This document shows positions 13,317-32,591 of a stretch of DNA of 64,000 nucleotides, in pieces; the stretch's first letter is position 1; every line of letters starts with the position of its first letter. The stretch lies in the NCBI GenBank assembly GCA_029779535.1, contig JAKPAG010000117.1, forward strand, positions 1,818-65,817, written 5' to 3'. The stretch is from Pseudomonadota bacterium (GTDB lineage: Bacteria > Pseudomonadota > Alphaproteobacteria > Sphingomonadales > Sphingomonadaceae). Both the position numbers and the translations under genes were made by a program. The notes beneath the pieces were generated by a model. It was not told where the DNA came from. It made no database searches and worked only from the letters and a program-made list of their open reading frames with translations.

Positions 13317-13341
13317 TCCGGGCGGGGCGCCCGCTGGCCGG

Positions 13342-14493: not shown

Positions 14494-14509
14494 GTCGGCT
14501 TTACTCCGC

Positions 14510-14941
14510 TCAGGCCAGGCCAGCCGCGGCCAGCGCGGCCTGGGCGACTTCCATGTCGTGGCTGTAGTGCCCGCCGCTGACCCCGATCCCGCCAACCATC
14601 ACGCCATCGACCTTGACCGGATAGCCGCCGCCGAACACCACCAGCCGGGGCGTGTGGACGATCCCATCGAGCAGCGGCGGATCGTTCTTGATGAAATCGT
14701 GCCATTCGTGCGTCGCCATGCCGAACGAAACGGCGGTATAGGCCTTGTCCTGCGCGATCTGCACCGACAGCAGCGGGGCATGATCCATCCGCCGGAACTG
14801 GACCAGCGTACCTGCCGGATCGCACAGCGCGATGCACATCGGCACCTGCATTTCCGACGCCTTGGCCATCGCCCCGGCCATCAGTTCATCGGCCAGCTCA
14901 TTGGACATGGTCTGCACGGTCAGGGTCTTGGCCACGATCAT
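14510..14941 (-). CDS. GlcG/HbpS-family (heme-binding-like) protein
   Basis: DPAG.LV.F.RMD.A...S...AQDKAYTAV and GGG.P...G...GGIGVSGG...D motifs. Confidence 0.8.
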   Translation of the reverse strand: MIVAKTLTVQTMSNELADELMAGAMAKASEMQVPMCIALCDPAGTLVQFRRMDHAPLLSVQIAQDKAYTAVSFGMATHEWHDFIKNDPPLLDGIVHTPRLVVFGGGYPVKVDGVMVGGIGVSGGHYSHDMEVAQAALAAAGLA

Positions 14942-14958
14942 CTTCCCCCTTGGGCATT

Positions 14959-14975
14959 AGTCAATTTAGGTGACA
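14959..14975. promoter_or_regulatory. Third GTCAA..TGACA operator copy, in the glcG/CoA ligase divergent promoter
   Basis: AGTCAATTTAGGTGACA keeps both palindromic ends (11 of 17 matches to the 8167 site). Confidence 0.5.
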
Positions 14976-15077
14976 ATCACGACAAGCGCCGCACGTGTCA
15001 ATCGTTAGCACGCAAAGCACTTGCCTTGGCGCGCGGCCTGCCCGAACGTGGGCTCGGAACTGGAGAGTGACCCGACC

Positions 15078-16625
15078 GTGAGCGCCATTGATCCCTATGC
15101 CGACAAGGATGTCCCCTGGTTGCTGCGCAGCCATGCCGAAACGCGCGGCGACGCGGTGTTCTTGGCCTGGGAACCGTTCGAGGATGACCCCGGCGAATGG
15201 ACCTACGGCCAGTTCCACGCCGAAGTGCGCGATCTGGCTGCGGCCCTGCGCGCTCGCGGGCTGGCGCGCGGCGACAAGCTGCTGATCCACGCCGGCAACA
15301 GCCCCGAATTCCTGCTGGCCTGGTATGCCTGCGCCATGCTGGGCGTGGTGGCGGTCACCACCAACCCGCGCTGCGCGGCCGCCGAAGTCGCCTATTTCAT
15401 CCAGCATTCCGGGGCGCGCGCGGCAATCGTGGAAAGCACATACCTGGGCCTGATTGCGCAAACCGGCGCGCGGCTGGAATGGATCGCCGCCTTCCCCGCC
15501 GATGGCGACCGCGCAGCCCTGCCCGCCGGGATCGTCCCCTTTGCCAGCCTGCGCGGCGATGGCGCGGCGCTGGTGGCCGAGCCGCTGGAGGCGATGACCC
15601 CTCTGTCGGTGCAATATACCTCGGGCACCACCAGCCGGCCCAAGGGCGTGGTCTGGACCCATGCCAACGCGCTGTGGGCCGGGCAGATCGGCGCGGCGCA
15701 CAACCAGCTGCGCAGCGATGACGTATCGCTGGTGTTCACCCCGCTGTGCCATGCCAACGCGATGAGCTGGGGCCACCTGCCGATGCTGTGGACCGGCGGC
15801 AAGGTAGTGCTGCAACCGCGCTTTTCCGCCAGCCGGTTCTGGCCGGTGGCGCTGAAGCATGGCTGCACCTGGGGCAATGTCATCCCCTTTGCGATCCAGG
15901 CGATCGCCGAGCAGGCGGTGCCGCAGCACAGCTTTCGCCAGTGGGTCGTCGGCGCGGCGGGCCTGGGCGGGCTGGACAAGCACTTCCGCGTCGCCATCCT
16001 GGGCGCCTGGGGGATGACCGAGACGGTCACCCACGGCACTTTCACCCCGCCGCAGTTGCCTGCGCCCGACCGCTCGATCGGCCTGCCCGCCCCCGAATAC
16101 GAAGTGAAGATCGTGGACGAACAGGGCGCGCCGGTGAAGGTGGGCGAGACCGGCCTGCTCAAGATCCGGGGCACGCGCGGACGGGCGCTGTTCCTGGAAT
16201 ACCTCGACGATCCGGCCGCCACCGCCGCCAGTTTCGACATCGATGGCTGGTTCGATACCGGCGACCGGGTCTACCAGGTCGAGCAGGGCCACCTGCGCTT
16301 TGCCGACCGGGCCAAGGACATGCTCAAGATCGGCGCAGAAAACGTCGCCGCATCCGAAATCGAAGCGGTGATCGCCATGGTGCCCGGCGTGCTGGAAGCC
16401 GCCGTGGTCGGCCGTCCGCACCCGATGCTCGACGAGGAGCCGGTTGCCTTTGTCCGCGCCGCCGCCCCCTCGCCTGACTTGGCCGACGCGATCCTGGCGG
16501 CCTGCCGCGCGCAGCTGGCCGGCTTCAAGGTGCCCGCCGCAGTGCGCTTCATGGAGGAATTCCCGCGTTCGGAACTGAACAAGGTATCGAAGAAGGACCT
16601 GCGCGAGCTGGCCCGCGAGGGCTGA
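15078..16625 (+). CDS. AMP-dependent CoA ligase (CaiC-like)
   Basis: YTSGTTSRPKGV, GAWGMTET, WFDTGD and DRAKDMLKIGAENV motifs; probable GTG start at 15078. Confidence 0.85.
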   Translation: MSAIDPYADKDVPWLLRSHAETRGDAVFLAWEPFEDDPGEWTYGQFHAEVRDLAAALRARGLARGDKLLIHAGNSPEFLLAWYACAMLGVVAVTTNPRCAAAEVAYFIQHSGARAAIVESTYLGLIAQTGARLEWIAAFPADGDRAALPAGIVPFASLRGDGAALVAEPLEAMTPLSVQYTSGTTSRPKGVVWTHANALWAGQIGAAHNQLRSDDVSLVFTPLCHANAMSWGHLPMLWTGGKVVLQPRFSASRFWPVALKHGCTWGNVIPFAIQAIAEQAVPQHSFRQWVVGAAGLGGLDKHFRVAILGAWGMTETVTHGTFTPPQLPAPDRSIGLPAPEYEVKIVDEQGAPVKVGETGLLKIRGTRGRALFLEYLDDPAATAASFDIDGWFDTGDRVYQVEQGHLRFADRAKDMLKIGAENVAASEIEAVIAMVPGVLEAAVVGRPHPMLDEEPVAFVRAAAPSPDLADAILAACRAQLAGFKVPAAVRFMEEFPRSELNKVSKKDLRELAREG

Positions 16626-16709
16626 GGCGGCGCAATCCGGCTTTGACAAACGGCCCGCAAGCCAGCAACCGGGTTGCGATACGAAACCGGATTCGCCGGA
16701 CCATAGAGG

Positions 16710-17876
16710 ATGATCATGCGCCAGTTCACCGAAGACCAGATCATGTTCCGCGATGCCTATCGCAAGTTCCTCGACGCGGAGATTGCCCCGCACATGGAAG
16801 CATGGCGCGAAGCCGGGATCGTCGATCGCAGCGCCTTCAGGAAGGCCGGTGACCTTGGCTTCCTGATGATCTGGCCGGACGAGAAGTATGGCGGGATGGG
16901 CGACACCGACTTCCGCTATGAACAGATCATCATCGAGGAAACCTGCCGTGCCGGGGCCAAGCAGTTCTACAACACGCTGCACAGCCGCCTGGTCGGCCCC
17001 TATTTCCAGCGCTTCGGGACCGAGGAACAGCGCATGCGCTTCCTGCCCAAATGCGTTTCGGGCGAGACGATCCTGGCCATCGCGATGACCGAGCCGGGCG
17101 CCGGATCGGACCTGGCGGGGATGCGCACCAATGCCCAGGACATGGGCGATCACTGGCTGCTCAACGGGTCAAAGACCTACATCTCGAACGGGATCAACGC
17201 CGACGTGGTGATCGTCGCCGCCAAGGTGGCCGGCGCGGACAAGAAGCACGCCATGGTGCTGCTGATCGTCGAACGCGGGATGGAAGGGTTCGAACGCGGC
17301 CGCAACCTCAAGAAGATGGGCATGCCCGCGCAGGACACCGCCGAACTGTTCTTCAACAACGTCAAGGTGCCCAAGGCCAACCAGCTTGGCGAGGCCGGCA
17401 AGGGGTTCTACTACCTGATGGAAGGGCTGGCGGAAGAACGGCTGATTTCCGCCGTCGGCTGCGCCGCCAACGCCCGCAAGGCGTTCGACATCACCCGCGA
17501 TTACGTCAGCCAGCGCCAGCTGTTCGGCCAGCCCCTGTCCGAACAGCAGAACACCCAGTTCCGCATGGCCGAAATGGACACCGAGATCGAGCTGGCGCAG
17601 GTCTATATCGACCACTGCGTTACCATGCATAACCAGGGCATGCTGACCAGCAACATGGGCGCCAAGGCCAAGATGGTCGCCAGCGAGGTCGAATGGAAGA
17701 TGCTGGACCTGGGCGTCCAACTGCATGGCGGGGCCGGGTTCATGGACGAATACCCGATCAGCCGGATGTTCAGCGATGCGCGCATCAACCGCATTCTGGC
17801 CGGATCGAGCGAAGTGATGCGCCTGATCATCGGCCGCGACGTGTTCTCGCAGAAGTACCAGAGCCTGTTCGACTAG
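16710..17876 (+). CDS. Acyl-CoA dehydrogenase (LCAD-like)
   Basis: IAMTEPGAGSDL, NGSKTYISNG, QLHGGAGFMDEY and ILAGSSE motifs. Confidence 0.9.
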   Translation: MIMRQFTEDQIMFRDAYRKFLDAEIAPHMEAWREAGIVDRSAFRKAGDLGFLMIWPDEKYGGMGDTDFRYEQIIIEETCRAGAKQFYNTLHSRLVGPYFQRFGTEEQRMRFLPKCVSGETILAIAMTEPGAGSDLAGMRTNAQDMGDHWLLNGSKTYISNGINADVVIVAAKVAGADKKHAMVLLIVERGMEGFERGRNLKKMGMPAQDTAELFFNNVKVPKANQLGEAGKGFYYLMEGLAEERLISAVGCAANARKAFDITRDYVSQRQLFGQPLSEQQNTQFRMAEMDTEIELAQVYIDHCVTMHNQGMLTSNMGAKAKMVASEVEWKMLDLGVQLHGGAGFMDEYPISRMFSDARINRILAGSSEVMRLIIGRDVFSQKYQSLFD

Positions 17877-18089: not shown

Positions 18090-18737
18090 ATGCCGCCACG
18101 CTTGCAGGACGCTTTCCTGACCCGTGGGCGCGAGGTTGCCTTCAGCCGCAAGCAGGTGATCATGACCGAAGGTGCCGAGGATACCGACGTCTACCTGCTG
18201 ATCACCGAGCGTCTGCAATTCTCGCTGCTGTCACCCCAGGGGCGCGAAGTGATCCTGCGCGAGATGGGGCCGGGCGAAATGTTCGGCGAATTGTCCGCGA
18301 TCGACGGCCTGCCGCGTTCCACCAATGTCATGGCGCTGGAAGACAGCCGCCTCGCGCAGATGAACGCGGCTGCTTTTGCCGCCATGCTGGGCGAAGTGCC
18401 CGACGCCGGGCTGTGGGTGGCGCGGCAGCTGGTCCAGCGCATCCGCAACCTGACCGACCGCGCATTCGAGCTGGCGACTCTGCCGGTCGCCAGCCGGGTC
18501 CAGGCCGAACTGCTACGGCTGGCACGCGAAGCCGCGGCGCCCGGGGCCGACGCGATCGAAATCCGCCCCATGCCGACCCATGCCGATCTGGCCGCGCGGG
18601 TCGGCACCAGCCGCGAGGCGGTGTCGCGCGAACTGGGCCTGCTGGCGCAGCAAGGGCTGCTGGCGCAAAGCGGCCGGACCCTGCGGATCGGTTCGATCAC
18701 GGCCTTGCGCGCGGTCTATGAACGAATGCTGCGATGA
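18090..18737 (+). CDS. Crp/Fnr family regulator with an intact cNMP-binding cassette
   Basis: FGELSAIDGLPRSTNV phosphate-binding cassette; HTH GTSREAVSR with the CRP R-E-x3-R recognition residues. Confidence 0.9.
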   Translation: MPPRLQDAFLTRGREVAFSRKQVIMTEGAEDTDVYLLITERLQFSLLSPQGREVILREMGPGEMFGELSAIDGLPRSTNVMALEDSRLAQMNAAAFAAMLGEVPDAGLWVARQLVQRIRNLTDRAFELATLPVASRVQAELLRLAREAAAPGADAIEIRPMPTHADLAARVGTSREAVSRELGLLAQQGLLAQSGRTLRIGSITALRAVYERMLR

Positions 18738-21631
18738 GCCTGGTCAACCAACGTCATCACCTTGTCCTGCTGTTCACTGACCTGACCGACTCCACCCGCA
18801 TCACCGCGGACATGGAGCCGGAAGACTATGCCGACCTGCTCAGCCGCCTGCGCGAAATCACCAACCGGATCATCGCCCACCACGGCGGCGAGGTGGTGCG
18901 GATCGACGGCGACGGCGCGCTGTGCATCTTCGGCTATCCCCTGGCCCACGAGGATGCCGGCCGCCGCGCGACCGAAGCGGCGCTGGACCTGCATGCCGCC
19001 ATGGCCGAACTCGACGGGCTTTACGCGCCGGGGCTGAAGCTGCGGCTGCACAGCGGGATCCACGCAGGGGTGGTGCTGCTGCGCAGCGGCGACCTGGTGC
19101 GCGGGCGCTATGAAGTGCTGGGCGATGCCACCAATGTCGCCGCGCGGCTGTGCGATGCCTCCAGCCCGAATGGCCTGCTGGTCAGCGCCGAAACGCTGGG
19201 CGCGGATGCCAATTTCTTCGTCACCGGCCAGCCGCAGGTGCTGGGGCTGGGCGGACGACGCAAATCGGTCCAGGCCTTGCCGGTGCTGGGGCGCAGCGAT
19301 ACCGCCACCCGCTTTGCCGCGCGCACCCGCCAGCGGCAGACCCCGCTGACCGGGCGCGATGGCCAGCGCGCCGCGATTGCAGACTGGCTGAATGGCGGGC
19401 CGGACACGCCCGCCACCCTGTTGCTGCACGGCCCGGCGGGGATCGGCAAGAGCCGCCTGCTGGCGCAGGTCGCCAGCGATGCGCGGGCGCGCGGCTGGCG
19501 GCTGGCGCGCGGCTATTGCGAGGCTTATCTTGCGGCGCGGCCGCTCCAGCCGTTCCTGCAGATCGCGGCCGAACTGTCCGGCGGCGATGCGGCCGACCTG
19601 CCGGCGGTAACCGGCCCGATCGGCGCCGAAGTGGCCCGCGCCGCGCACGGCACCCCGCTGCTGGTCATGATCGACGACTGGCAGTGGGCCGACGATGCCA
19701 GCCGCGACCAATTGGCCGCACTGCTGGCCGCCGCCCCGGCGGGCCGGCTGCGCGTACTGCTCGCCTCGCGCGAGGGCGATGCGGCGCTGCCCGATGGCGC
19801 GGCGCAAATACGGGTCGAACTGCCCCCACTGGACGAGGCCGCCGCCCACGCCGCGATCGCCGCGCTGCTGGGCACGCAGGAACCGGGCGTGATCGCCCGG
19901 ATCGCCGAAGCGGCCGGCGGCAGCCCCCTGCTGCTCGAGGAATTGTGCCTGGCCCAGGCCAGCCGCGCCGCCACGCCCAGCGGCGAAGCGCGCGGCGCAT
20001 GGTTCGACCTGGCGGTGCAGGCGCGCTTTGCCGCCCTGCCCCCGGCCGATGCCGCGATGCTGCGCCAGGCGGCGATCATCGGCCATATCGTGCCGGCCTG
20101 GCTGCTGGCCGCGATCCAGGGCGAAGCAATCGGCGCGGCGATGCTTGACCGGCTGGCCGAAGCCGATTTCCTCTACCCCGGCGAAACCGGCAGCACGCTG
20201 AGCTTCAAGCACGGGCTGACCCGCGACGCGGTCTATGCCGGGATCGACCTGGCGCTGCGGCGCGACCTGCACTGCCGCGTGCTGGACGTGCTGGAAAGCC
20301 GCGCGCAGCAGGTCGGGGAAAGCGGGCTGCTCGATGCGCTGGCCTATCACGGCGCGGCGGCCGGGCAGGCCGACAAGGCGCGCGACTATGCCGTGCGGGC
20401 GGGCGATGCGGCGCTGGCGGCCGGCGCGCTTGACCGCGCCCAGGCGCACTACCGCGCCGCCTTCGACTGGGTCGAGGCCATGCCCGAAGGCGAGCAGCGC
20501 GCCGCGCTGGGCTGGTCGCTGCTCAACAAGTTCGGGCTGGCCAGCATCGTCGATCCGGCGCTGGAACAGCTGCCAGTGCTGGAACGGGCCGCAGCATTGC
20601 TGGCAGGCAGCGGCGATCCTGCGGCGCGGGTGCGCAGCGCCTACTGGCTGGGGGCGATTGCCTATGGCCTGGGGCTGGGCCAGCGCTCGGTCGAGCACCT
20701 GAGCGCCGCGCGGCGTATCGCGCTGGAATCGAATGACGAGCGTTTCATCCACCAGATCGAGGTCAAGCTGGCCCAGTCGCTGACCGCTGTGGGCCGCTAT
20801 GCCGAGGCGGCCGCGCTGTTCGACGAGGTGCTGCCCCGCTTTGACGGTCTGCGCGGGCGCAACAACCAGGAAACGCTGATCTATGCCTTGTGCTGCCGGG
20901 GCTTCATGCTGGGCGACCAGGGCCACATGGCCGCTGCCGAAGCCCTGTACACCCAGGCCGAAACCCGCGATCCCGAAGCGCTGACCACCATGCGCCCGTC
21001 GCTGTTGACGCAGAAGGCGGCGCTGCGGCTGTGGCAGGCCGACTGGGCCGGGGCCGAGGCGCTGGCCCAGGCGGCCTTGCAGGACTGCACCCGCACCCGC
21101 ACCCGCTATCTGGCGATGATGAGCCACGCGCTGGCCGCCTTCGCCCGCTGGCGCAGCGGCGGCGGCGAGGCCGAAATAGCCCGGATGGAAGACACCGCGC
21201 ACTGGTTCAAGAGCCACGGCAACAGCCGCCAGCGCACTTCGCTGGTGTTCGGCTGGCTGACCGAGATGATGGTCGCGCAAGGCGATGCCCCGGCGGCGCG
21301 GCGCTATGCCGGAATGATGGTCCAGCGCATCCGCGAAGGCGGCGACCGGCTGGGCGAGGCGATGGCCTGGCGCGCGTTGGCCCGGCTGGAGCTGCGCCGC
21401 GCCCGGCCCGAACGCGCCGACCACTACCTGCGCCTGGCCGATGCATCGGCCCACTACCGCGCGAGCCCGCGCGAATGGGCGGGCAACCGGCTGTGCGCCG
21501 CGCGGCTGGCCAGCGCCCGGGGCGACGCCCAGCGCGCCGCCAAGGAAGCACGGCAGGCTGCCGACACCTATGCCACGCTGGGCATGGAAGGCTTCAGGCA
21601 GCGGGCGGCGGCACTGGCTCCCAATCGCTGA
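18734..21631 (+). CDS. Class III nucleotidyl cyclase - STAND (AAA_16-like) ATPase - TPR-like protein
   Basis: LFTDLTDST, DGDG and GDATNVAARL cyclase motifs; Walker A GPAGIGKS, Walker B MIDD; helical C-terminus; ATGA overlap with crp. Confidence 0.85.
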   Translation: MSLVNQRHHLVLLFTDLTDSTRITADMEPEDYADLLSRLREITNRIIAHHGGEVVRIDGDGALCIFGYPLAHEDAGRRATEAALDLHAAMAELDGLYAPGLKLRLHSGIHAGVVLLRSGDLVRGRYEVLGDATNVAARLCDASSPNGLLVSAETLGADANFFVTGQPQVLGLGGRRKSVQALPVLGRSDTATRFAARTRQRQTPLTGRDGQRAAIADWLNGGPDTPATLLLHGPAGIGKSRLLAQVASDARARGWRLARGYCEAYLAARPLQPFLQIAAELSGGDAADLPAVTGPIGAEVARAAHGTPLLVMIDDWQWADDASRDQLAALLAAAPAGRLRVLLASREGDAALPDGAAQIRVELPPLDEAAAHAAIAALLGTQEPGVIARIAEAAGGSPLLLEELCLAQASRAATPSGEARGAWFDLAVQARFAALPPADAAMLRQAAIIGHIVPAWLLAAIQGEAIGAAMLDRLAEADFLYPGETGSTLSFKHGLTRDAVYAGIDLALRRDLHCRVLDVLESRAQQVGESGLLDALAYHGAAAGQADKARDYAVRAGDAALAAGALDRAQAHYRAAFDWVEAMPEGEQRAALGWSLLNKFGLASIVDPALEQLPVLERAAALLAGSGDPAARVRSAYWLGAIAYGLGLGQRSVEHLSAARRIALESNDERFIHQIEVKLAQSLTAVGRYAEAAALFDEVLPRFDGLRGRNNQETLIYALCCRGFMLGDQGHMAAAEALYTQAETRDPEALTTMRPSLLTQKAALRLWQADWAGAEALAQAALQDCTRTRTRYLAMMSHALAAFARWRSGGGEAEIARMEDTAHWFKSHGNSRQRTSLVFGWLTEMMVAQGDAPAARRYAGMMVQRIREGGDRLGEAMAWRALARLELRRARPERADHYLRLADASAHYRASPREWAGNRLCAARLASARGDAQRAAKEARQAADTYATLGMEGFRQRAAALAPNR

Positions 21632-24600
21632 GCCGCACGATCAGCGCGGCGGGCATGGCCTGAATCGTCCCGGCATCAAGCAGCGCCGCCATGATCCCCA
21701 TGATCGCGCCGAAGGCCATGTTCTGCGCCGGGCAGGCATGGACCGGATAGGGCGCCGCGCTGTCCACCTGGTCGGCCGCCTGGCGCTTGCCGCCGAACAC
21801 GATCGACACGTCGCCATCGGGCATGTCCGGATCGAACAGCGAGCGCTGCGAGGCCGAGACCTGGCTGACCACTACCAGGTCGCCCTCGCGCACCTGGATA
21901 TCGCGGCGGTGCGGGCAGGCCGGGGTGGGGGGATCGACCGCGATCGTCGCCGCGCGCTGGGCGGTGCGATAGAGCAGGTCGGGCGCGGGGCGCACGCACA
22001 TGGCCTGCGACACCGGGCTTTTCAACGCGCCGATCGCTTCGGCCACGGCCGTGCCCGCTGGCCGCCCGCCGGTGGCCCGCTTCAGCGCGGACTGGTGCCG
22101 CCACAGCGACTTTTCCCCCAGCCATTCGGCCAGGATCCCGCGCAGGTTGCCGTCCATCGGCGGGATCGCGCCAACCATGGTGCCAACCAGGTTGCGGGCC
22201 AGCACTTCATCATCCGCAATCGCGCCGAACATCGCCGCCGCGACCGAACCCTGCGGCACGCTGCCCGCCGCGCGGTGCTCGGCCACGAAAGCGCGCGCCG
22301 CGGCCAGGATCGCCTTGCCGTGGTTGTCGGCAAATTCGGTCACTTCGGGGCTGGGCCGGGGATAGAAGGCATTGCGCGATGGCGAGAGGAAGTCCCCCGG
22401 ACAGTGCGCCTTGTCGCGCCCGGGCGCGGCCGGATCAGCGCCATATGCGCCGTCCCCGTCCAGCCGCACCGGCTGCCATGACCAGCCGCCCAGCGCCATG
22501 TGCAGGTCGTCCGGCAGGCCGTACCACAGCTTGCACAGCACCCCCAGCGCGGGCAGCAGGTACTGGCGGCGCAGTTCCAGCTTGAAGGCCGTGCGCCCCA
22601 GTGCCTGGACCCGCAGCTTCATTTCCTTGAGCACCGCCGATCCCGCCGCGTAACCGGCGCGGAACCCGTCAGCCTCGCCATAGTGCAGCAGGATCGCGTT
22701 GGTCGCGGTGGCATCGCTGCGATAGTTCAGCCCCAGCGCGTTCAGCGCCGGGTTGTTGTAGGCATCGTCCGGCTGCTGGGTGACGAAGATCGGCCCGCTG
22801 TTGGTGTGGATGCGGCGCAGCTGCTCCTCGCTGGAGAAAGTGCGCCAGTCGGCCAGCACGGCGGCAACCTGGTCGCGCCCGGCAACCAGCACCACGTTCT
22901 GGCTGGCCCGGTCGGGATTGGCCCAGTCATAGCCATGCCCGAAGCTGCCCTCGCCCTCGCCGGCCGGTTCATCGCCCGGTTCATCGGTCAGGTTCAGCGC
23001 ATCAGGCACGGCGATCCCGCCCGGCAGCTTCGGTCCCCGCCGCAGGTTGAGCGCGCCGCCATAGAAATAACGGATCGCCGACCACATGTCGGGGGTCACA
23101 TCGCGTTCGGCCGGGTCCTTGGTGACGAAATCCTCGAGCAGCCGCTTCCATTCCTTGGCGGCCTCGGCCGCGGGCAGGGCCTCGACCCGCTCGATCACCG
23201 CGCGGCCGCGCACGTCTTCCAGGAACTTGCGCATCAGCCGGAACCGGCCCTGGATCCGCGCCAGCCGGTCCAGCGCGCGGCGCGACGGCACGAACAGGTA
23301 GAGCCCCCAGTGCAGCGGGGTGAACGGGTGGCGGCCGGGTTCCGATCCGCCGGTCAGCCCCGGCGCGGGCGTGAAGGCCGGCAGCGGCACGCGCACCACC
23401 TGCGGCTGGCCGGCAGCATCGCTGGCGATGAACTGGAACAGGCCCGGCGGATCCTTGGGCAGCACGCCGGTCAGCGGATCGTTGTTGGCGGCGGCCTGGT
23501 CGGTGCTGTTGCCGCCGTTCAGCCAGCGCTGGATCACCTCGTACTGTTCGGCGATGCTGGCGTTGTAGGCCATGAACATCAGACCGGCCTTGTCCGGCCC
23601 GTCCTGGCGGTGGCCGAACAGCATCGCCCGGCGCAGCAGGCGCGGGGTGGGCCGGTCGAATTCGGCGCGGGTCAGCGTCTCGTCCTGGCTGAGCGGGGGC
23701 ACGTTGCCACCCGGCACGATGCGGCGCGGATTGGCGCGGCGGATGTGCGCCGCGAACGGACACTGCCGCCCCGCCCCGTCCTGGCCATAGTCGAAATCGT
23801 TGAGGCCGCCGGCATCGGGCCGGGCCAGCGGGCGCCCCGCCTCGTCGCGCCCCATCACCGCCGCCTTGAGCAGCGCTCGCGCCGCGGCAGCATCGATCCC
23901 CAGCTGCGCCGCGATCGGCGCGGCCGACTGGTCCAGCCAGGCATCGAAGCGCGCCACATCCTCGCCGATCTTGCGCACCACCAGGAAGGTGCCGTTCAGT
24001 TGCAGCTCGCGCGCTTCCTGGCGCGGCCTGCGGCGCCAGTCGTCCAGCGTGACGAATGGCGCGGGCGCGCTGTCGCCGCGGTCGTTGCCATAGCCCAGCA
24101 GCACTTCGCCGGGCCGCACCCGGTCGCGGTCCAGCACGGCAGCGGAATTGTCGCCGATCCCCGGCAGGCGCGGGCGTGGCTGGCTGATCCCGTCGAGATA
24201 GCCGAAGTGATCGCGGAAATAGCCGTCGCCTTCGCCATGCGCGCCGGTCAGCCATTCGACCGCTTCAAGGCTGGCGCCCTGCCCCGCCAGCGTGGCCAGC
24301 CGCCGCGCCTCGACCTCGAGCACGGCGCGCTCGGCCGCACTCGTGCGCAACTGGACGACGATGTCCACCTCGCGCAGTTCGACGCGCGGCAGGCGCGTGC
24401 CAAGCGGCACCGCCCCGGTCAGCGCCGGGCCGTTGCGTTCGGGCAGGATCCAGTTGCGCGGATGGTTCTCGCGCTGGTCGCCCAGGAGCCCGCTGCGCTG
24501 CTCCATCCCCTCGCGGAATTCCTTGGGGAAGCAATCGACCACGTCATAGTCCAGCCCCAGCCGCAGCAGGCCGTCGGGCGTGAAGCCGACCGTGCGATAG

Positions 24601-25760
24601 ATCCCGTCCGCCGGCGTGCTGCCCGGCCCGGCGGCGAAATGCGGATCGAGCGCGGCAATGAAGTCGCGCGCGCGGCCCGCATCGCGGATCGTGAACAGCA
24701 GCAGCGCGCCGTGCTGAACCGGCTGCGCCGCGCTGCCCTGGGCTTTCAGGATCCCGCCCTGCACTTCGCCCAGCTCGAATGGCGGATCGGGCAGGCGGCG
24801 GGCTTCCAGTTCGGCGTCAAGCCGCGCAAGGTAGCGCTTGCCGCTGGTGTACCAGGCCAGCGGTTCGGCATAGACCGCCTGGGCCCGCGTCCACACCTGC
24901 CTGAGCGGGTGCGCTTCCGGCAGGGCCTCGACCCCGGCGATGAAGTGGTCCCAGCCAAGCAGGATGTCGCCTGCCGCGCGGACCAGCCGGTGCCCTTCGT
25001 TAAGCCGCTCGCGCCCGTCGGGATCGGTGCCCGCGGGCCGCCCGGTCAGCCATTCGGGCGGGTAGAAATCGGCCAGCTTGTAGATCACGTTGAGCGCTTC
25101 GAGCCCGAGTTCGAGCGTCTTGGGCGCATGCTGCCGGCGCGTTTCGGTGGCGGCGGGTTCGGGATAGAGCATCCGCGCGCTGGCCAGTTGCAGATCGTCC
25201 GCGCCTTCGCGCTGCAGCCGCTCCAGCCGCGACAGGTACTTCTGGTCCCGCGTCGACAGGCCGGTGGTGTTGTAGAAGATCGCGCTGTCCATCTGGTTGT
25301 CGCGCACCCATTGCAGGTATTCCTCGCAGGAATGCTCGGTCGCGGTGACATAGCCGTCGCAGTTGCAGAACAGGAGGTCGAGGAACGGCCCGAGCGGCTT
25401 CCAGATCAGCCGCATGTAGGGTTCCCACCCGCCCTCGAAAGTGGCGGTGAGATAGAGGTAGCGGCGGCTGCCCAGCGCCAGTTCGCCCGGGGCCAGCCGG
25501 GACAGGCCGAACAGGTCCTTGTCCAGCACCCCCACCCGGAAGTCGAGCAGGTTGAGGATGCGTTCGGTCACGTCGGAATAGGGCACCACCCGCTCGTATT
25601 CGCGCGCCGCAACGCGGATCCGGTTGAGCGCTTCGGCCACCAGCTTCAATCGGCTGGCATAGGTGATGTTCTCGTAAGCCTGGATGAAGCCATCCTTGAT
25701 CGGGGCGATCACCACCAGGTCGGTGATCCCGTCGATATGCTTGGAAGTAACCTCGTCCAT
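21594..25760 (-). CDS. Multidomain heme protein: uncharacterised N-domain + DyP-type peroxidase + atypical cytochrome P450-like domain
   Basis: DyP motifs GYLDG (24189-24203), NGTFLVVRK, CPFAAHIRRANPR (His near 23745) and LLRR; C-terminal VFGG...HACPAQNMA heme-thiolate-like motif (21726-21740). The start at MDEVT is inferred. Confidence 0.75.
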   Translation of the reverse strand: MDEVTSKHIDGITDLVVIAPIKDGFIQAYENITYASRLKLVAEALNRIRVAAREYERVVPYSDVTERILNLLDFRVGVLDKDLFGLSRLAPGELALGSRRYLYLTATFEGGWEPYMRLIWKPLGPFLDLLFCNCDGYVTATEHSCEEYLQWVRDNQMDSAIFYNTTGLSTRDQKYLSRLERLQREGADDLQLASARMLYPEPAATETRRQHAPKTLELGLEALNVIYKLADFYPPEWLTGRPAGTDPDGRERLNEGHRLVRAAGDILLGWDHFIAGVEALPEAHPLRQVWTRAQAVYAEPLAWYTSGKRYLARLDAELEARRLPDPPFELGEVQGGILKAQGSAAQPVQHGALLLFTIRDAGRARDFIAALDPHFAAGPGSTPADGIYRTVGFTPDGLLRLGLDYDVVDCFPKEFREGMEQRSGLLGDQRENHPRNWILPERNGPALTGAVPLGTRLPRVELREVDIVVQLRTSAAERAVLEVEARRLATLAGQGASLEAVEWLTGAHGEGDGYFRDHFGYLDGISQPRPRLPGIGDNSAAVLDRDRVRPGEVLLGYGNDRGDSAPAPFVTLDDWRRRPRQEARELQLNGTFLVVRKIGEDVARFDAWLDQSAAPIAAQLGIDAAAARALLKAAVMGRDEAGRPLARPDAGGLNDFDYGQDGAGRQCPFAAHIRRANPRRIVPGGNVPPLSQDETLTRAEFDRPTPRLLRRAMLFGHRQDGPDKAGLMFMAYNASIAEQYEVIQRWLNGGNSTDQAAANNDPLTGVLPKDPPGLFQFIASDAAGQPQVVRVPLPAFTPAPGLTGGSEPGRHPFTPLHWGLYLFVPSRRALDRLARIQGRFRLMRKFLEDVRGRAVIERVEALPAAEAAKEWKRLLEDFVTKDPAERDVTPDMWSAIRYFYGGALNLRRGPKLPGGIAVPDALNLTDEPGDEPAGEGEGSFGHGYDWANPDRASQNVVLVAGRDQVAAVLADWRTFSSEEQLRRIHTNSGPIFVTQQPDDAYNNPALNALGLNYRSDATATNAILLHYGEADGFRAGYAAGSAVLKEMKLRVQALGRTAFKLELRRQYLLPALGVLCKLWYGLPDDLHMALGGWSWQPVRLDGDGAYGADPAAPGRDKAHCPGDFLSPSRNAFYPRPSPEVTEFADNHGKAILAAARAFVAEHRAAGSVPQGSVAAAMFGAIADDEVLARNLVGTMVGAIPPMDGNLRGILAEWLGEKSLWRHQSALKRATGGRPAGTAVAEAIGALKSPVSQAMCVRPAPDLLYRTAQRAATIAVDPPTPACPHRRDIQVREGDLVVVSQVSASQRSLFDPDMPDGDVSIVFGGKRQAADQVDSAAPYPVHACPAQNMAFGAIMGIMAALLDAGTIQAMPAALIVRLSDWEPVPPPAA

Positions 25761-25841
25761 GATCGTGCCCCTGTGCCCCCTGCGCGATTCGCCGCCGGGA
25801 TGCCTGTTTTGAGCCCTATTGGCAGCGCGGGGTAAGGCGTC

Positions 25842-25857
25842 TGTGCGAAATTCCACA
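25842..25857. promoter_or_regulatory. Second CRP-like site, upstream of the DyP-P450 gene
   Basis: TGTGC-GAAATT-CCACA, within the palindrome CTGTG-N8-CACAG; two mismatches from the CRP consensus. Confidence 0.45.
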
Positions 25858-25887
25858 GTGGCGCCGAATTTTTGTGCTTGCATTATT

Positions 25888-25899
25888 TAAGCGTGCTTA
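25888..25899. promoter_or_regulatory. Candidate MarR operator for the efflux operon
   Basis: TAAGC-GT-GCTTA palindrome just upstream of marR. Confidence 0.5.
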
Positions 25900-25913
25900 T
25901 TATCGGCCAGGCC

Positions 25914-26360
25914 ATGATCCATTCCTACATCTACCAGATGGGTGACAGTTCGCGCCTGCTGCGCCGCGCCTTCGATGCGCGGATGCGGCAGCTGGGCGTT
26001 ACCGGACCGCAGGCGCGCCTGCTGCTGGAACTGTCCAAGGCCGAGGGTGAGAACCAGGGCCACTATGCCGAACGGCTCGAGGTTGAGCCGATCACCCTGT
26101 GCCGCATGGTCGACCGGATGGAGGAATCCGGCCTGCTGGAACGCCGCCGCGATCCGGCTGACCGGCGCGCCTGGCGGGTTCACCTGACGCCGCGCAGCCG
26201 GATCATGATCGACCGCCTGCGCGAAGGCGTGGCCCAGCTGGAACAGGACATGCTGGCCGGGCTGGACGACAGCGCCCGCGAGCAATTCTCGCAAGTGATG
26301 GACATGATCCGCGCCAACCTTGCCCAACCCCTTGATACGGAGCTGGCCGACCATGGCTGA
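25914..26360 (+). CDS. MarR family regulator of the efflux pump
   Basis: TGPQARLL...LEVEPITLCRMVDRMEESGLLERRRDPADRRAWRV. Confidence 0.85.
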   Translation: MIHSYIYQMGDSSRLLRRAFDARMRQLGVTGPQARLLLELSKAEGENQGHYAERLEVEPITLCRMVDRMEESGLLERRRDPADRRAWRVHLTPRSRIMIDRLREGVAQLEQDMLAGLDDSAREQFSQVMDMIRANLAQPLDTELADHG

Positions 26361-27429
26361 GGCCGACCCCACCTTTGCCGACACCCGCGAGGACACCGCC
26401 ACCCCGCCGCCGCCCCACCCGGCCCGGCGACTGGGGCGGCTGGCCGCGATGCTGTCGGTCCCGCTGCTGGTGCTGGTTGCCGGCGCGTTCTACTGGTTCA
26501 GCCTGCAAGGCCAGGTTTCGACCGACAACGCCTATGTCAAGCAGGACAAGGTTTCGGTCAGCGCCGAAATCAGCGGCCGCATCGTCGAAGTGATCGGGCG
26601 CGAAAACATGCAGGTCAAGGCCGGTGACCTGCTGTTCCGGATCGATCCCGAACCCTACCAACTGCAGATCCAGCAAGCCAATGCCGCGATTGCCGCGGCC
26701 CAGGCCAGCCAGGTCGCGCTGGCCAATGCCAGCCCGCTGTCGGGCGCGGACATCTCATCGGCCCAGGAAAGCATCGCCTTTGCCCGGTCAAACCTGGCGC
26801 GGCAGGAAGCGCTGTGGAAGCGCGGCTTTGCCACCAAGGCCGCCTATGACGCCGCCCTGCACGCCGTTTCCCAGGCCGAGGAAGCCCTGCGCCTGGCCGA
26901 AGCCAAGCGCGACGAAGCCGCGGCCAAGCTGGCGACCGGGGCGCAGGTCCCCGGCATGTTCCCCCAGGAAGCCCAGGCCCGCGCCCAGCGCGCCGCCGCC
27001 GAGCTGAACCTGCGCCGCACCGAAGTGCGCGCGCCGATTGCCGGCCGGCTGAGCCAGGCGACCCGCCTGCAGATCGGCCAGGACGCGATCGTCGGCCTGC
27101 CGCTGGTGACGATTGTGGCCACCAGTTCCAGCTATGTCGAAGCGAACTTCAAGGAAACCGACCTCAACCAGATGCAGGTCGGCCAGCCGGCCGAGGTGCG
27201 CTTCGATGCCTATCCCAATCTCAGGCTGAAGGGCCACGTCGCCTCGATCGGTGCGGGCACGGGCAGCGAATTCTCGGTCCTGCCGGCGCAGAACGCCACC
27301 GGCAACTGGGTCAAGGTAACCCAGCGCGTGCCGGTGCGGATCGCGCTGGACGAAGCCAGTCCGCGGGTGCTGATCGCGGGCCTGTCGGCCAAGGTGAAGG
27401 TCTTCACCGCCAACGCCAAGCGCGACTAA
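26353..27429 (+). CDS. HlyD/EmrA-family membrane fusion protein
   Basis: N-terminal TM, STDNAYV, ANFKET and [17 protein letters not shown] motifs. Confidence 0.9.
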
Positions 27430-27436
27430 CGCCGCC

Positions 27437-29035
27437 GTGGCCAGCGTCCCAGCCAATTCTCCGCGCGGCCGCAGCGTGGCGGCCATGCCGCAGCTCGACC
27501 CGGCCGATGTGCCCGCGCTGGCGTGCGACAACTATCGCCTGCTGATCTTCGGGATCATGCTGGCGGCGCTGCTCCAGATCCTCGATTCGACCATCGCCAA
27601 TGTCGCCATCCCGCACATGCAAAGCTCGCTGGGGGCTACGGCGGATACGATCAACTGGGTGCTGACCAGCTATATCGTGGCTTCGGCGGTGGCCATGCCG
27701 ATCACCGGCTGGCTGGCCGAACGGATCGGCGCGCGGCGCCTGTTCATCGGTTCGGTCGCAGCGTTCATCGTCGCCTCGATGCTGTGCGGCGCGGCCCAGA
27801 ATCTGACCCAGATGGTGCTGTTCCGCGCGCTCCAGGGTGTCGCCGGCGCGTTCATCGCCCCCCTCAGCCAGAGCGCGATGATCGACGTCACCCGTCCCAG
27901 CCGCCAGGCGCAGATCATGTCGCTGTGGGGCATGGGGGTGATGATCGGCCCGATCTTCGGCCCGATCCTGGGCGGCTGGCTGACCGAGAACTGGTCGTGG
28001 CGCTGGGTGTTCTACGTCAACCTGCCGCTGGGCATCATCTCCCTGGTCATCATGATGGCGGAGCTGCCCGGGCGCGAGGCCGCCGCGCGCAAGTTCGACC
28101 TGACCGGCTTCTCGCTGGTCGGCATCGCACTCGCCTCGGTCCAGCTGATGCTTGACCGCGGCAACCACGTGGACTGGTTCGATTCGATCGAAACCTGGAT
28201 CTACCTGGGCGTCGCCCTGTCGACCACCTGGATGGCGATCATCCACCTGGCCACGGCCGAACAACCGATCTTCCGCCAGGAACTGATCTACGATCCCAAC
28301 TTCCTGCTGGCACTGGCCTTCATGATCGTGGTCGGCGTGGTGATGATGGCCACCATCGCGCTGCTGCCGCCGATGTTGCAGCACCTGTTCAACTATTCGG
28401 TGATCGACACCGGCATGACGCTGATGCCGCGCGGGGTGGGCACGCTGATCTCGATGCAGCTATCGGGCATCCTGGTGCGGCGCGGGTTCGATGCGCGCGT
28501 GCTGGTGGCCAGCGGCTTTGCCTTCGCGGGCACATCGCTGTGGATGATGTCGGGCTGGTCGCTGGATGTCGATTACTGGAACATCATTGTTTCGGGCTTC
28601 ATCCAGGGTCTGGGCATGGGCATGGTGTTCATCCCGATCAACGCCAGCGCCTTTGCCACGCTGCCGCCGCAGCTGCGCACCGAAGGGGCCAGCCTGCTCA
28701 ACCTGTTCCGTTCGATCGGCGCTTCGGTCGGCATCTCGGTGGTGTCGACCCTGCTGGCGCGCAACATCCAGGTGGCACACCAGGACCTCGCCTCGCACAT
28801 GAATTCGGCCTCGGTCGCGGGGCTGGATTTCAGCACCGCCGACCGCTTCCAGGCGCTGGGCGACGTCGCGATGCGCATGGCCGACGGCGTGGTCAACCGC
28901 GAGGCGGCGATGATCGCCTATGTCGACGATTTCTATGCGATGATGTGGGTAACGCTGGCCGCGATCCCGCTGTGCATCCTGCTGCGCCCGCCGCAGACCA
29001 AGGGGATGCCGCAGCAGCCGGTCAGCGATCACTGA
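27437..29035 (+). CDS. DHA2/EmrB-family 14-TM MFS efflux transporter
   Basis: QILDSTIANVAIP, WVLTSY, RALQG and WRWVFYVNLP motifs. Confidence 0.9.
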   Translation: MASVPANSPRGRSVAAMPQLDPADVPALACDNYRLLIFGIMLAALLQILDSTIANVAIPHMQSSLGATADTINWVLTSYIVASAVAMPITGWLAERIGARRLFIGSVAAFIVASMLCGAAQNLTQMVLFRALQGVAGAFIAPLSQSAMIDVTRPSRQAQIMSLWGMGVMIGPIFGPILGGWLTENWSWRWVFYVNLPLGIISLVIMMAELPGREAAARKFDLTGFSLVGIALASVQLMLDRGNHVDWFDSIETWIYLGVALSTTWMAIIHLATAEQPIFRQELIYDPNFLLALAFMIVVGVVMMATIALLPPMLQHLFNYSVIDTGMTLMPRGVGTLISMQLSGILVRRGFDARVLVASGFAFAGTSLWMMSGWSLDVDYWNIIVSGFIQGLGMGMVFIPINASAFATLPPQLRTEGASLLNLFRSIGASVGISVVSTLLARNIQVAHQDLASHMNSASVAGLDFSTADRFQALGDVAMRMADGVVNREAAMIAYVDDFYAMMWVTLAAIPLCILLRPPQTKGMPQQPVSDH

Positions 29036-29579: not shown

Positions 29580-30770
29580 CTATTCGTCGCGGCTGAAGAT
29601 GAAGGCGGTGCTCTTGGTCAGGCCGTTGGAAATCGTCGCCACCGCGCGGCGGGCGCCCGGAACCTGCCGTTCGCCGCCGCGGTCGGTCACCTGGATCACG
29701 CTTTCGGCCAGCTGGGTCATGCCGTGCAGCCGCCCTTCGCCCAGCGCGCCGCCGCCGGTGTTGACCGGGAGCTTGCCGGTCAGGCTGCCGTGGCCATCGC
29801 GCAGGAAGGCCAGCCCCTCGCCGCGCGGGACGATCCCCAGCCCTTCAAGCCACAGGTACACGAATGGCGCGAAGCCGTCATAGACCTGGGCGGTGTCGAT
29901 CTCCTCGGGGCGCACGCCGCTCGATTGCCACAGCCGCTGGGCAACCTGTTCGCAGCCGATCCAGATATCGTCCAGCGTCATCGGCAGGCCGGCGGGCGCC
30001 GGGTGCGTGCCGGCGGAAAAGCCGGTCAGCAGCGCCGGCTTGCAGCGCAGGTCGCGGGCGCGTTCGGTGCTGGTCAGCAGCAGCGCGGCGCAACCATCGA
30101 CCGGGATGTCGCAATCGAGGATCGACATCGGATCCGCGATCATCCGCGCGTCCAGATAGTCCTGCCGGGTCAGCGGCTTGTCCCAGAACCCGTTGGGGTT
30201 CTTCAGCGTATTCGCCCGGTTATCGGCGATGTAGCGGGCAAAGTCGGCGCGCGAATAGCCGTAGAGTTCAAAATAGCGCCGCGCCACCGTGCCCGCCCAG
30301 CTGGGCGGAACCGAGAAGCCATAGGGCGCCATGAACTGATCGCCCGCGGCGGCATACTTGCTCTCGTAGTTGACATAGCTGCCCTGCGGCACGTGCAGCG
30401 CGCGGTAGACGATCACCGTGTCGCACACGCCCGAAGCAATCGCCATGGCCGCTTCCTGGAACCCCTGGGTGACCATCGCGTTGGTCGATCCGGTCCAGGC
30501 AAGGTGGCGATGCGTGCCAAGCCGTTCCGACAAGGCCCAGGGGGTGACCACGTCGATCCCGTCGATCGTCCCGCGTGCGCCGCCATAGCGCGGCATTGCC
30601 GGTGAAGTGACCAGCCCGTTCACATCCTTGCGGGTCAGCCCGGCGTCAGCCAGCGCGGCATCGCAGGCTTCCACCGCCAGGCTCATCAAGGGGCGCTGGG
30701 GACGGCGGCTGAGCGCACTGTAGCCAATGCCCGCGACGGCGATCTTGTTGCTGAAGGCCCACATGTTCAC
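29580..30770 (-). CDS. Thiolase-superfamily protein (SCP-x/Ltp2 type, no catalytic Cys)
   Basis: AVAGIG, CDIPVDG, AQVYDGF and NTGGG.L.EG..HG motifs. Confidence 0.85.
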   Translation of the reverse strand: MNMWAFSNKIAVAGIGYSALSRRPQRPLMSLAVEACDAALADAGLTRKDVNGLVTSPAMPRYGGARGTIDGIDVVTPWALSERLGTHRHLAWTGSTNAMVTQGFQEAAMAIASGVCDTVIVYRALHVPQGSYVNYESKYAAAGDQFMAPYGFSVPPSWAGTVARRYFELYGYSRADFARYIADNRANTLKNPNGFWDKPLTRQDYLDARMIADPMSILDCDIPVDGCAALLLTSTERARDLRCKPALLTGFSAGTHPAPAGLPMTLDDIWIGCEQVAQRLWQSSGVRPEEIDTAQVYDGFAPFVYLWLEGLGIVPRGEGLAFLRDGHGSLTGKLPVNTGGGALGEGRLHGMTQLAESVIQVTDRGGERQVPGARRAVATISNGLTKSTAFIFSRDE

Positions 30771-31210: not shown

Positions 31211-31215
31211 CGATC

Positions 31216-31333: not shown

Positions 31334-31356
31334 AATTGATAGAGAGGTTTCAGATC

Positions 31357-32580: not shown

Positions 32581-32591
32581 GGAACCATCCC

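Follow-up and report, generated by a model that had tools for sequence, protein, structure and literature searches.

A widespread bacterial protein family joins a DyP-type peroxidase domain to a predicted P450-fold domain and is encoded beside a nucleotidyl cyclase

Introduction

The 64,000-nucleotide stretch of DNA analysed here (the window; contig JAKPAG010000117.1 of the Sphingomonadaceae assembly GCA_029779535.1) carries on its minus strand a long open reading frame (ORF) in which a DyP-type peroxidase seems to be followed by a part resembling a cytochrome P450. Is such a fusion a real gene, is its C-terminal part a P450 at all, and what would an enzyme made of both parts do? A first-pass annotation, made from the letters alone, had described the ORF as a three-domain fusion in which the P450 domain takes over a peroxide or radical product and needs no redox partner. 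We find that the gene, here called DyP-P450, is an intact frame of exactly the span first noted, and that it represents a previously undescribed, widespread family. We are highly confident of the structural statements, namely an intact ORF, a DyP domain and a P450 fold. As to function, we put the chances at about even that the enzyme is a self-contained, peroxide-driven two-haem oxidoreductase acting on lipid-derived acyl chains under cyclic-nucleotide/Crp control. Its self-sufficiency and use of peroxide we hold to be somewhat better than an even bet; a fatty-acid or oxylipin-type substrate is a more tentative proposal, a little short of even.

Results

The fusion is an intact gene of a widespread family

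The frame stays open on the minus strand from 25883 to a TGA stop at 21594-21596. Its start was placed by homologue alignment at the ATG at 25760 (MDEVTSK...), where the family consensus is MxxExTSKxIDGITDLVV; at 70% G+C, long ORFs on the other strand are to be expected as a by-product. Contigs of four independent metagenomes cover positions 21500-25900 with 0, 14, 20 and a few substitutions, and none has an insertion or deletion (indel) in the ORF. The first-pass annotation had allowed that resequencing might split the frame, and it does not. The same sequence was found in metagenomes of wastewater, activated sludge, digester and freshwater, at least 20 runs in all and more than 12 studies. 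For RNA, the 24 runs returned by a general run search were all labelled 'DNA?' metagenomes, no RNA-only search having been made. Measured against three Novosphingobium orthologues, the ratio of nonsynonymous to synonymous substitution rates (dN/dS) is 0.18-0.28 for the whole ORF and 0.11-0.21, 0.16-0.29 and 0.24-0.30 for the N-terminal, DyP and C-terminal domains, respectively; all three domains are thus under purifying selection.

A protein search returned 277 relatives, of which about 120 listed are full length at 38-75% identity, and a scan of one genome per species gave 206 loci, with a metagenome-assembled genome (MAG) of Novosphingobium as best match (94% protein identity), which places the window in that genus. 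Identities across the relatives range from 27 to 94%. The alphaproteobacterial hosts belong to Sphingomonadales, Caulobacterales, Hyphomonadaceae and Bradyrhizobium, many others are Burkholderiales (Variovorax, Roseateles, Rhodoferax, Sphaerotilus, Ideonella, Methylibium), and the family also occurs in Pseudomonadales, one Vicinamibacterales MAG and one deltaproteobacterial MAG. Carriers that can be cultured include Erythrobacter donghaensis DSM 16220, Sphingomonas laterariae LNB2, S. changbaiensis NBRC 104936 and strains of Variovorax or Roseateles. Because the ORF is free of indels in four independent assemblies and has full-length homologues in 206 species-level genomes, it is neither a sequencing nor an assembly artefact.

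The middle domain carries a complete DyP signature

PDB DyPs were matched at E 3e-17 by a single-sequence search, and a profile of the family aligned with the whole DyP fold at E 1.7e-47, values that put the DyP assignment well outside chance. The best profile match was 8RE3 (residues 25-443) together with 8RE2, structures of the Deinococcus radiodurans DyP (PMC10820274), followed by an ancestral D-type DyP, AnaPX, Amycolatopsis DyP2 and fungal DyPs. Since the ranking is headed by 8RE3, the D-type ancestor, AnaPX and DyP2, we class the domain as class C/D (class V)-like. It scores 22.4 bits with Pfam Dyp_perox_C, above the cut-off of 20, and 67 bits with TIGR01413, under that model's cut-off of 100.5.

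Conservation was counted over 72 aligned family members. The first-pass annotation had reported a full set of DyP signatures (GxxDG, a proximal His and a distal Arg), and these recur throughout the family: Asp523 is kept in 71/72 members, and His672 and Arg710 in all 72. Both His672 and Arg710 align with the corresponding residues of solved DyPs. Judged by these residues, the domain has everything that would be expected of an active peroxidase.

The C-terminal domain is predicted to have a P450 fold

The C-terminal domain opens with about 30 residues of helical linker, P450 homology beginning at about residue 865. Pfam, NCBIfam and a PDB profile search (E<=10) gave no P450 for the window protein, only DyP matches; Pfam PF00067 had no match at E<=1 in the window protein and none at E<=10 in the C-terminal domains of ten divergent relatives. 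The structure prediction bears out the first-pass view that this region is P450-like. An AlphaFold2 model built on 71 family sequences has a pLDDT of 92 and a pTM of 0.92, and at E<=1e-3 Foldseek matched it to 1377 PDB chains, of which the best 50 are all cytochromes P450. The best match was the BM3 haem domain (E 6.7e-10, probability 1.00, ~475 aligned columns, 12% identity), followed by CYP204A3 and CYP97C1; TM scores of the top P450 matches are 0.45-0.60 over ~475 columns. In the model, secondary-structure elements follow the P450 order and the conserved Cys lies three residues before predicted helix L.

Profile-profile alignment placed the residues of interest. Compared with the canonical CYP101-like P450 encoded in the window, the domain gave only a 38-column local match under standard hhalign settings (probability 0.85%). 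A greedier alignment (mact 0.05) to CYP101/P450cam was colinear over 387 columns, though statistically weak (P 0.0027, probability 11%). It paired, with the window protein given first and CYP101-P450cam second, VLADWRTFSSEEQ with VLQDGETFSSNRN, LELRRQYLLPALGVLCKLWYGLPDD with CEVMSEFAFPFAVSIFLQFLGIPND, MVGAIPPMDGNL with FIAGLDTVAAAL, LYRTA with VRRAT and PVHACPAQNMA with GPHRCLGSHLA. The last of these, GPHRCLGSHLA, comes from the window's CYP101-like P450 and corresponds in P450cam to the loop of the proximal Cys. In this weak alignment Cys1343 falls on the proximal Cys, and Arg1265, invariant in 72/72, on the position of P450cam Arg299, a haem-propionate ligand. His1341 falls on the His two residues before the Cys; in bacterial P450s the His of this HxC motif is known to bind a haem propionate, and self-sufficient fungal linoleate diol synthases (LDS) and allene oxide synthases (AOS) have kept HxC, for example as H(Q/A)C (PMC13049297).

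The thiolate motif first read as HACPAQ proved to be part of an invariant Cys loop. F1322-G-G-x-R1326 and H-A-C1343 are invariant in 71 aligned sequences, and an FGG...HxCP pattern is found in 70/72 members. H-A-C is followed by P-(A/G) and is split from F-G-G-x-R by 5-27 inserted residues that lie on the proximal face, so that Phe and Cys stand 12-34 residues apart rather than 7 as in canonical P450s. In the predicted I-helix, G1197 is conserved in 72/72 and the acid position is Pro in 66/72. The position of the Thr is divided between Thr (37/72) and Pro (34/72), the window protein having Pro. ExxR, first reported as replaced by QAMC, is indeed missing, and not from this protein only: across the family the Glu position is R, Q or A and the Arg position Q, C or R (R in 7/72). 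Among the classical P450 sequence signatures the domain fails two of three and has the third, the Cys loop, in modified form.

One part of the initial reading needs amending. GAIPP does replace the acid-Thr pair in this protein, but it is not a family trait: the split at the Thr position makes the second Pro a feature of the Sphingomonadales clade. Loss of the Thr had been taken as a pointer to hydroperoxide chemistry, an argument that it cannot carry alone, given that 37/72 members have Thr and 34/72 Pro. Thr is also present in some self-sufficient fungal AOS P450s (PMC13049297), so its loss is neither necessary nor sufficient for such chemistry. Three features do hold across the family: a Pro in place of the acid, the lack of ExxR and the lengthened Cys loop. 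Altogether, we class the C-terminal part as a divergent P450-fold domain, probably a haem-thiolate one, outside any CYP family, with haem predicted from motifs and fold to bind through Cys1343.

A further strongly conserved motif, C/Y-P-G-D/H-F-x-x-P-S-R, spans residues 1120-1129 (22374-22403) in the predicted F-helix/substrate-recognition region, with P1121 in 72/72 and S1128 and R1129 in 69/72. Arg1129 could bind a carboxylate.

A family-specific N-terminal domain

That the protein has three domains was correct as first described, but the third, residues 1-330, had been left without identification. No other part of the protein is as strongly conserved. Its AlphaFold2 model (pLDDT 83) consists of a ferredoxin-like alpha/beta module (12-131) and a helical bundle (~145-321). 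Searches by sequence in Pfam, NCBIfam and the PDB gave it no match, and a fold search against the PDB found nothing significant (best E 0.06); Foldseek showed a weak ferredoxin-like resemblance to CutA1, PII, PeHNL and EthD-like proteins. We considered a diverged DyP half or a piece of P450, and hhalign showed no relation to either. Searching 1.84 billion representatives returned 484 relatives. Of the 150 listed, nearly all have the domain as the N-terminus of proteins of 1150-1580 residues or are short fragments; in a few, an N-terminal extension precedes the domain. The domain thus appears to be family-specific and without known relative. Invariant Y115, R117 and D128, and the C132-N-C134 motif (25359-25367), in which C134 is Thr in 23/72, are candidate functional residues.

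Relatives carry two unrelated lipase domains

In 17/72 loci a fourth domain of ~300 residues is fused at the C-terminus, with the SGNH/GDSL blocks GDSW, SAGGND, GYD.P.PD and ELHP; on two such domains Pfam Lipase_GDSL_2 scored above cut-off (E 9e-10 and 5e-8). Bradyrhizobium cajani (L060) and a Vitreoscilla MAG (L037) are among those with the four-domain form. Elsewhere a GDSL gene stands separately next to the enzyme gene on the same strand (Table 1), a classic split-versus-fused pattern. At one further locus, L040, a GDSL-like ORF overlaps, and a frameshift is possible there. Three other relatives, P0185, P0217 and P0240, have a patatin-like phospholipase ahead of the core formed by the N-terminal, DyP and P450-like domains. 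Their patatin domains reach Pfam E values of 1e-16 to 1e-19 and have the GGGxRG, GxSxG and DGG motifs, while the core keeps the FGG...HACP(G/A) Cys loop.

GDSL and patatin are unrelated acyl-hydrolase families and were recruited independently to the same core. The simplest reading of these two recruitments is that the core acts on an acyl chain released from an ester; from the fused domains, that chain would most plausibly be a fatty acid from a glycerolipid.

A nucleotidyl cyclase is the constant neighbour

Flanking ORFs of 73 loci were clustered to find conserved neighbours. A gene for a class III nucleotidyl cyclase with AAA_16/STAND ATPase and TPR parts (~1000 residues in the family) lies tail-to-tail with the enzyme gene in all 65 loci with enough flank, and the two 3' ends overlap or are less than 55 nt apart in 64/68. 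Of the four exceptions, three, with gaps of ~900-970 nt, match loci that have a GDSL gene on the downstream side of the enzyme gene. The same tail-to-tail partner accompanies a patatin-fused relative. A gene for a Crp-family regulator is present as well in 40/62 family loci, in most of them immediately before the cyclase gene. In the window the stop of the regulator gene and the start of the cyclase gene share 4 nt (18734-18737), which suggests an operon with translational coupling of receptor and cyclase.

Upstream of the enzyme gene, a CRP-type palindrome (Table 1) lies in the 112-nt intergenic region shared with a divergent MarR gene; the 64 kb of the window contain no other exact TGTG-N8-CACA. 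Of 70 loci, 14 have an exact site, situated at -69 to -107 (one at -176), and 200 shuffles gave 0.2 on average and never more than 2; with up to two mismatches, 31/70 loci have a CRP-type site and 4.65 are expected. An FNR-type box is not enriched (6/70, 2.75 expected). The cyclase pairing, the Crp-family regulator and the CRP box taken together, the enzyme gene appears to be the target of a dedicated circuit of cyclase, cyclic nucleoside monophosphate (cNMP) and Crp-family protein.

No ferredoxin, reductase or other enzyme is conserved beside the gene across the 73 loci. For the window the first-pass annotation had noted that no redox partner is encoded nearby, and there is indeed no ferredoxin or reductase within ~10 kb. 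An anti-phage defence system was also considered. PADLOC gave no match to the enzyme, and what its neighbours share with Pycsar components is no more than a generic likeness of cyclase and cNMP domains; for these reasons we do not read the locus as a defence system.

Two side observations belong here. In the window the convergent 3' ends of the DyP-P450 and cyclase genes overlap by 38 nt (21594-21631), and such an overlap might allow antisense or transcriptional interference. At the patatin locus L079, a gene of AMP-binding acyl-CoA ligase type lies beyond the tail-to-tail cyclase-AAA_16-TPR_MalT gene.

Other genes of the window

The DyP-P450 gene is divergent from an efflux operon (25872-29035, plus strand) of a MarR regulator, an HlyD/EmrA-type membrane-fusion protein and an EmrB-like transporter of the major facilitator superfamily, an arrangement conserved in the closest relatives only. 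About 5.4 kb from the DyP-P450 gene lies the canonical CYP101/P450cam-like P450 (31198-32580, plus strand; E 1.8e-64 to P450cam), with normal AGLDT, EELMR and FAYGPHRCLG motifs; this gene probably starts further downstream than the listed GTG. No ferredoxin gene adjoins it, and it is absent as a conserved neighbour of the family elsewhere. Two segments, 12078-17876 and 29580-41231, look like a region of acyl-CoA or side-chain catabolism and include several acyl-CoA dehydrogenases. The CYP101-like P450, MarR-EmrAB, the AMP-binding ligase and acyl-CoA dehydrogenase were considered as members of a module with the enzyme and set aside as not conserved across loci; the same holds for all the surrounding catabolic genes. 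Table 1 collects the features, and the motifs named at the outset were all found at the codons given there.

Table 1. Features of the DyP-P450 gene, its surroundings in the window and lipase-bearing relatives (L numbers are loci of relatives)
Feature	Position	Strand	Basis or remark
DyP-P450 ORF, complete, 1388 aa + stop	21594..25760	-	N-domain, DyP, P450-like domain; homologue-supported start, assemblies, dN/dS
N-terminal family-specific domain, residues 1-330	24771..25760	-	AlphaFold2, Foldseek, hhalign, representative search
DyP-type peroxidase domain, residues ~331-835, class C/D (class V)-like	23256..24770	-	profile search, Pfam, residue conservation
GYLDG with Asp523	24189-24203 (Asp523 codon 24192-24194)	-	motif check
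CPFAAHIRRANPR with proximal His672	23724-23762 (His672 codon 23745-23747)	-	motif check
PRLLRRAMLFG with distal Arg710	23613-23645 (Arg710 codon 23631-23633)	-	motif check
P450-fold domain, residues 836-1388	21597..23255	-	AlphaFold2 + Foldseek, hhalign, conservation
I-helix GAIPPMDGNLR within GTMVGAIPPMDGNLR	22140-22184	-	motif check
K-helix QAMC replacing ExxR, with R1265, in QAMCVRPAPDLLYR	21966-22007	-	motif check
FGGKR	21783-21797	-	motif check
HACPA with putative thiolate Cys1343	21726-21740 (Cys1343 codon 21732-21734)	-	motif check
CRP-type palindrome TGTGGAATTTCGCACA	25842..25857	-	97 nt upstream of ATG
Class III nucleotidyl cyclase + AAA_16/STAND ATPase + TPR, 965 aa	18734..21631	+	Pfam, locus comparison
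Crp-family regulator, cNMP_binding + HTH_Crp_2, 231 aa	18042..18737	+	Pfam
Rieske LigXa-like oxygenase	6644-8098		
Family III CoA-transferases	10372-11577, 38772-41231		
AMP-binding ligase	15021-16625		
Thiolase-like gene and adjacent Cys-rich ORF (resembles DUF35)	29580-31333		
TonB-dependent receptor	33212-36136		
Carboxylesterase	36242-38587		
GDSL-fused four-domain loci (ORF 3' ends)	L028, L030, L037, L048, L051, L059-L062, L066, L068, L071, L074, L075, L077		
Separate adjacent same-strand GDSL gene	L042:11813-12733 (downstream), L070:11898-12797 (downstream), L078:6882-7910 (upstream)		
Patatin-fused P0240	L079:4360-9078		

Discussion

A proposal for the enzyme and its control

The family lacks the P450 features that are tied to O2 activation and redox-partner use, the acid being Pro, ExxR absent and the Cys loop enlarged. 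We propose that the P450-like domain works without a partner because the proton-relay acid and ExxR are missing and the proximal face is remodelled, and that the substrate is a lipid-derived acyl chain handled in the manner of Ppo or CYP74 enzymes because relatives bear fused or adjacent GDSL and patatin lipases. The protein would bind two haems b, one ligated by His672 in the DyP domain and the other by Cys1343 in the P450-like domain. A fatty-acyl substrate would reach the enzyme, freed in some lineages by a fused or separate lipase, and the DyP haem would be oxidised by H2O2 or an organic hydroperoxide. The activated haem might then oxidise or oxygenate the substrate, directly or through a protein radical, and the P450-like domain would transform the intermediate at the (hydro)peroxide level or use peroxide directly, with neither NAD(P)H nor a redox partner. 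Upon sensing its ligand, the STAND cyclase would make cNMP, to which the Crp-family protein would respond by turning on transcription of the gene. Haem binding and catalysis by both domains are predictions in this scheme. The mechanism first suggested, in which the P450 domain receives a peroxide or radical product and dispenses with redox partners, remains plausible and is strengthened by the lipases fused to, or encoded beside, its relatives.

Several points weigh against this proposal. The window protein itself has neither a lipase domain nor a conserved lipase neighbour; SGNH hydrolases are not limited to lipids and include carbohydrate and aryl esterases; and we know of no documented fatty-acid dioxygenase activity of a DyP. 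ExxR is normally needed for stability of the P450 core and for haem incorporation, the WxxxR/HxxxR propionate motif of the C-helix is missing in the hhalign alignment, and motifs and fold are the sole basis for haem binding via Cys1343. Roughly half of the members still have Thr in the I-helix, and these may activate O2. The genes for P450 redox partners often lie at a distance from the P450 gene, and a convergent gene order is no proof of a functional link.

What else might the protein be? It could act on something other than lipids: aromatic, phenolic or other small molecules would be oxidised and the product hydroxylated or coupled by the P450-like domain, while the fused SGNH or patatin domains would be general esterases that unmask such substrates. 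Class C/D DyPs, to which the DyP domain is nearest, are known as oxidisers of dyes, lignin models and Mn. The breadth of the SGNH family would fit such a role, as would the aromatic/lipid catabolic look of the window region with its Rieske LigXa-like oxygenase, CoA transferases and carboxylesterase. We nevertheless consider this unlikely, in view of the patatin domains, which are phospholipases or lipid acyl hydrolases and were fused independently of GDSL, of a catabolic neighbourhood that changes from locus to locus, and of the protein itself, which has no signal peptide that we could see in its sequence and is predicted to be cytoplasmic. The P450-like domain could, instead, be a conventional monooxygenase using O2 and NAD(P)H, served by an unlinked ferredoxin and reductase, with the DyP domain clearing H2O2 from uncoupling or catalysing an unrelated step. 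The I-helix Thr of 37/72 members would suit it, unlinked partners are common for bacterial P450s, and the window's CYP101-like P450 likewise lacks an adjacent ferredoxin. With the acid of the acid-alcohol pair changed to Pro in 66/72, ExxR gone, an insertion of 5-27 residues altering the face on which partners dock and a reductase or ferredoxin conserved in none of 73 loci, this seems to us a rather poor prospect.

A P450-fold domain that holds no haem and catalyses nothing, serving as scaffold, substrate-binding lid or sensor and leaving the DyP domain as the only catalyst, would account for the want of ExxR, of WxxxR/HxxxR and of any sequence-level P450 signal, and also for a dN/dS slightly above that of the other domains (0.24-0.30). 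But the domain is under purifying selection, and among relatives 27-94% identical the invariant F-G-G-x-R...H-A-C-P, R1265, G1197 and P1200 lie exactly at haem and active-site positions of P450s, which is hard to explain without haem chemistry; we judge this alternative improbable. That the ORF is an artefact, a frameshift fusion or chimeric assembly of a DyP and a P450 gene, has next to no chance of being right: beside it stands a single relative (P0090, 918 residues, and locus L012) that appears truncated or split, and against it four indel-free assemblies, ~120 listed full-length homologues, 206 genomic loci and purifying selection throughout. The peroxide-driven two-haem oxidoreductase remains our preferred reading.

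A bolder extension of it, which we offer as speculation with the odds well against it, is that the three conserved genes form a closed bacterial lipid-mediator circuit. A lipase would free a fatty acid, the two-haem synthase would turn it into an oxylipin-type product without a redox partner, the STAND-TPR protein would bind the product or its precursor and make cAMP or cGMP, and the Crp-family protein would feed back via the CRP box. If true, prokaryotes would have their own counterpart of the eukaryotic cascades of phospholipase, cyclooxygenase or dioxygenase (DOX) and self-sufficient P450, built on entirely different haem scaffolds, and it would include a P450-fold lineage that works without ExxR.

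Comparison with known systems

The closest architectural parallel is with the fungal DOX-CYP fusions (PpoA, the LDS enzymes, 8-/9-DOX-AOS and the 10R-DOX-epoxyalcohol synthase), in which an N-terminal peroxidase-type domain is likewise followed by a C-terminal P450 in one polypeptide. These enzymes have two haems, His-ligated and then Cys-ligated, and a self-sufficient P450 with HxC in its Cys pocket (PMC13049297). DyP-P450 has H-A-C at the corresponding place, and a link to lipid-derived fatty acids is suggested by its lipase fusions. It differs in that the peroxidase is a DyP, a dimeric alpha+beta barrel, rather than a cyclooxygenase/animal-haem-peroxidase fold, in a P450-like domain without detectable sequence relation, in an extra N-terminal domain and in its bacterial hosts. 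Because its peroxidase domain is a DyP, the protein is not a member of the Ppo/LDS family, and the resemblance is one of architecture, an analogy and not homology.

With the CYP74 clan (AOS, hydroperoxide lyase, divinyl ether and epoxyalcohol synthases) and with CYP8A1 and CYP5A1, the P450-like domain shares an atypical I-helix, extra residues in the haem loop and the absence of a linked redox partner (PMC10813956). CYP74 enzymes have an extra nine-residue motif in the haem-binding domain and need neither O2 nor redox partners; they retain the ERR triad (PMC10813956), whereas the DyP-P450 family has no ExxR. The distal Asn of AOS and prostacyclin synthase sits at the canonical Thr position (PMC13049297), which is Pro or Thr in DyP-P450. 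The Cys-loop insertion of DyP-P450 varies in length (5-27 residues) and is compared with that of CYP74 without a claim of homology; no sequence similarity to CYP74 was found, nor was any P450 family matched by sequence in the PDB and Pfam searches. Among bacterial P450s, CYP152 (P450 BSbeta, OleT) uses H2O2 directly on fatty acids and has Pro in the acid-alcohol site of the I-helix. There the site is Arg-Pro, the Arg binding the carboxylate, and in DyP-P450 it is Pro-Pro or Pro-Thr; CYP152 is, moreover, an ordinary Pfam p450 with ExxR and has no sequence relation to DyP-P450.

The DyP domain aligns over the full length of the fold with class C/D (class V) DyPs (D. radiodurans 8RE2/8RE3, Amycolatopsis DyP2 4G2C, Anabaena AnaPX 5C2I), and shares with them GxxDG, the proximal His, the distal Arg and the CP..AH.RR.NPR motif. 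Known DyPs, however, stand alone at 300-500 residues. Here the DyP is the middle domain of 1388 residues, flanked by N-terminal and P450-like domains that are not known from any DyP, and membership of the DyP family holds for that domain only. The neighbouring gene, in turn, resembles the MalT/LAL-like STAND regulators with cyclase, ATPase and TPR parts: it combines Guanylate_cyc, AAA_16 and TPR (TPR_MalT in L079) and adjoins a protein with cNMP_binding and HTH_Crp_2. In the literature that we searched, we found no description of such a STAND cyclase in obligate tail-to-tail pairing with a haem enzyme gene; nor did the searchable literature, itself incomplete, describe the DyP-P450 family, a natural DyP-P450 fusion or the lipase link.

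Should both haem domains prove active, DyP-P450 would be the first natural fusion of a DyP with a P450 that we have found described, and a bacterial analogue of the eukaryotic oxylipin synthases reached by convergent assembly from different folds. The family also brings to light a large hidden P450-fold lineage, present in more than 200 species and ~480 clusters at 50% identity and missed completely by standard profiles; it does without ExxR, which bears on the minimal needs of a haem-thiolate P450. The independent GDSL and patatin fusions give a concrete substrate hypothesis for an unannotated protein, and the pairing with a cyclase-STAND-TPR protein, the Crp-family regulator and the CRP box suggest a second messenger that controls one dedicated enzyme. 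Self-sufficient, peroxide-driven enzymes of the P450 type are attractive biocatalysts. Two-haem fusions of peroxidase and P450 are known, and by analogy with them DyP-P450 builds the same idea from different parts.

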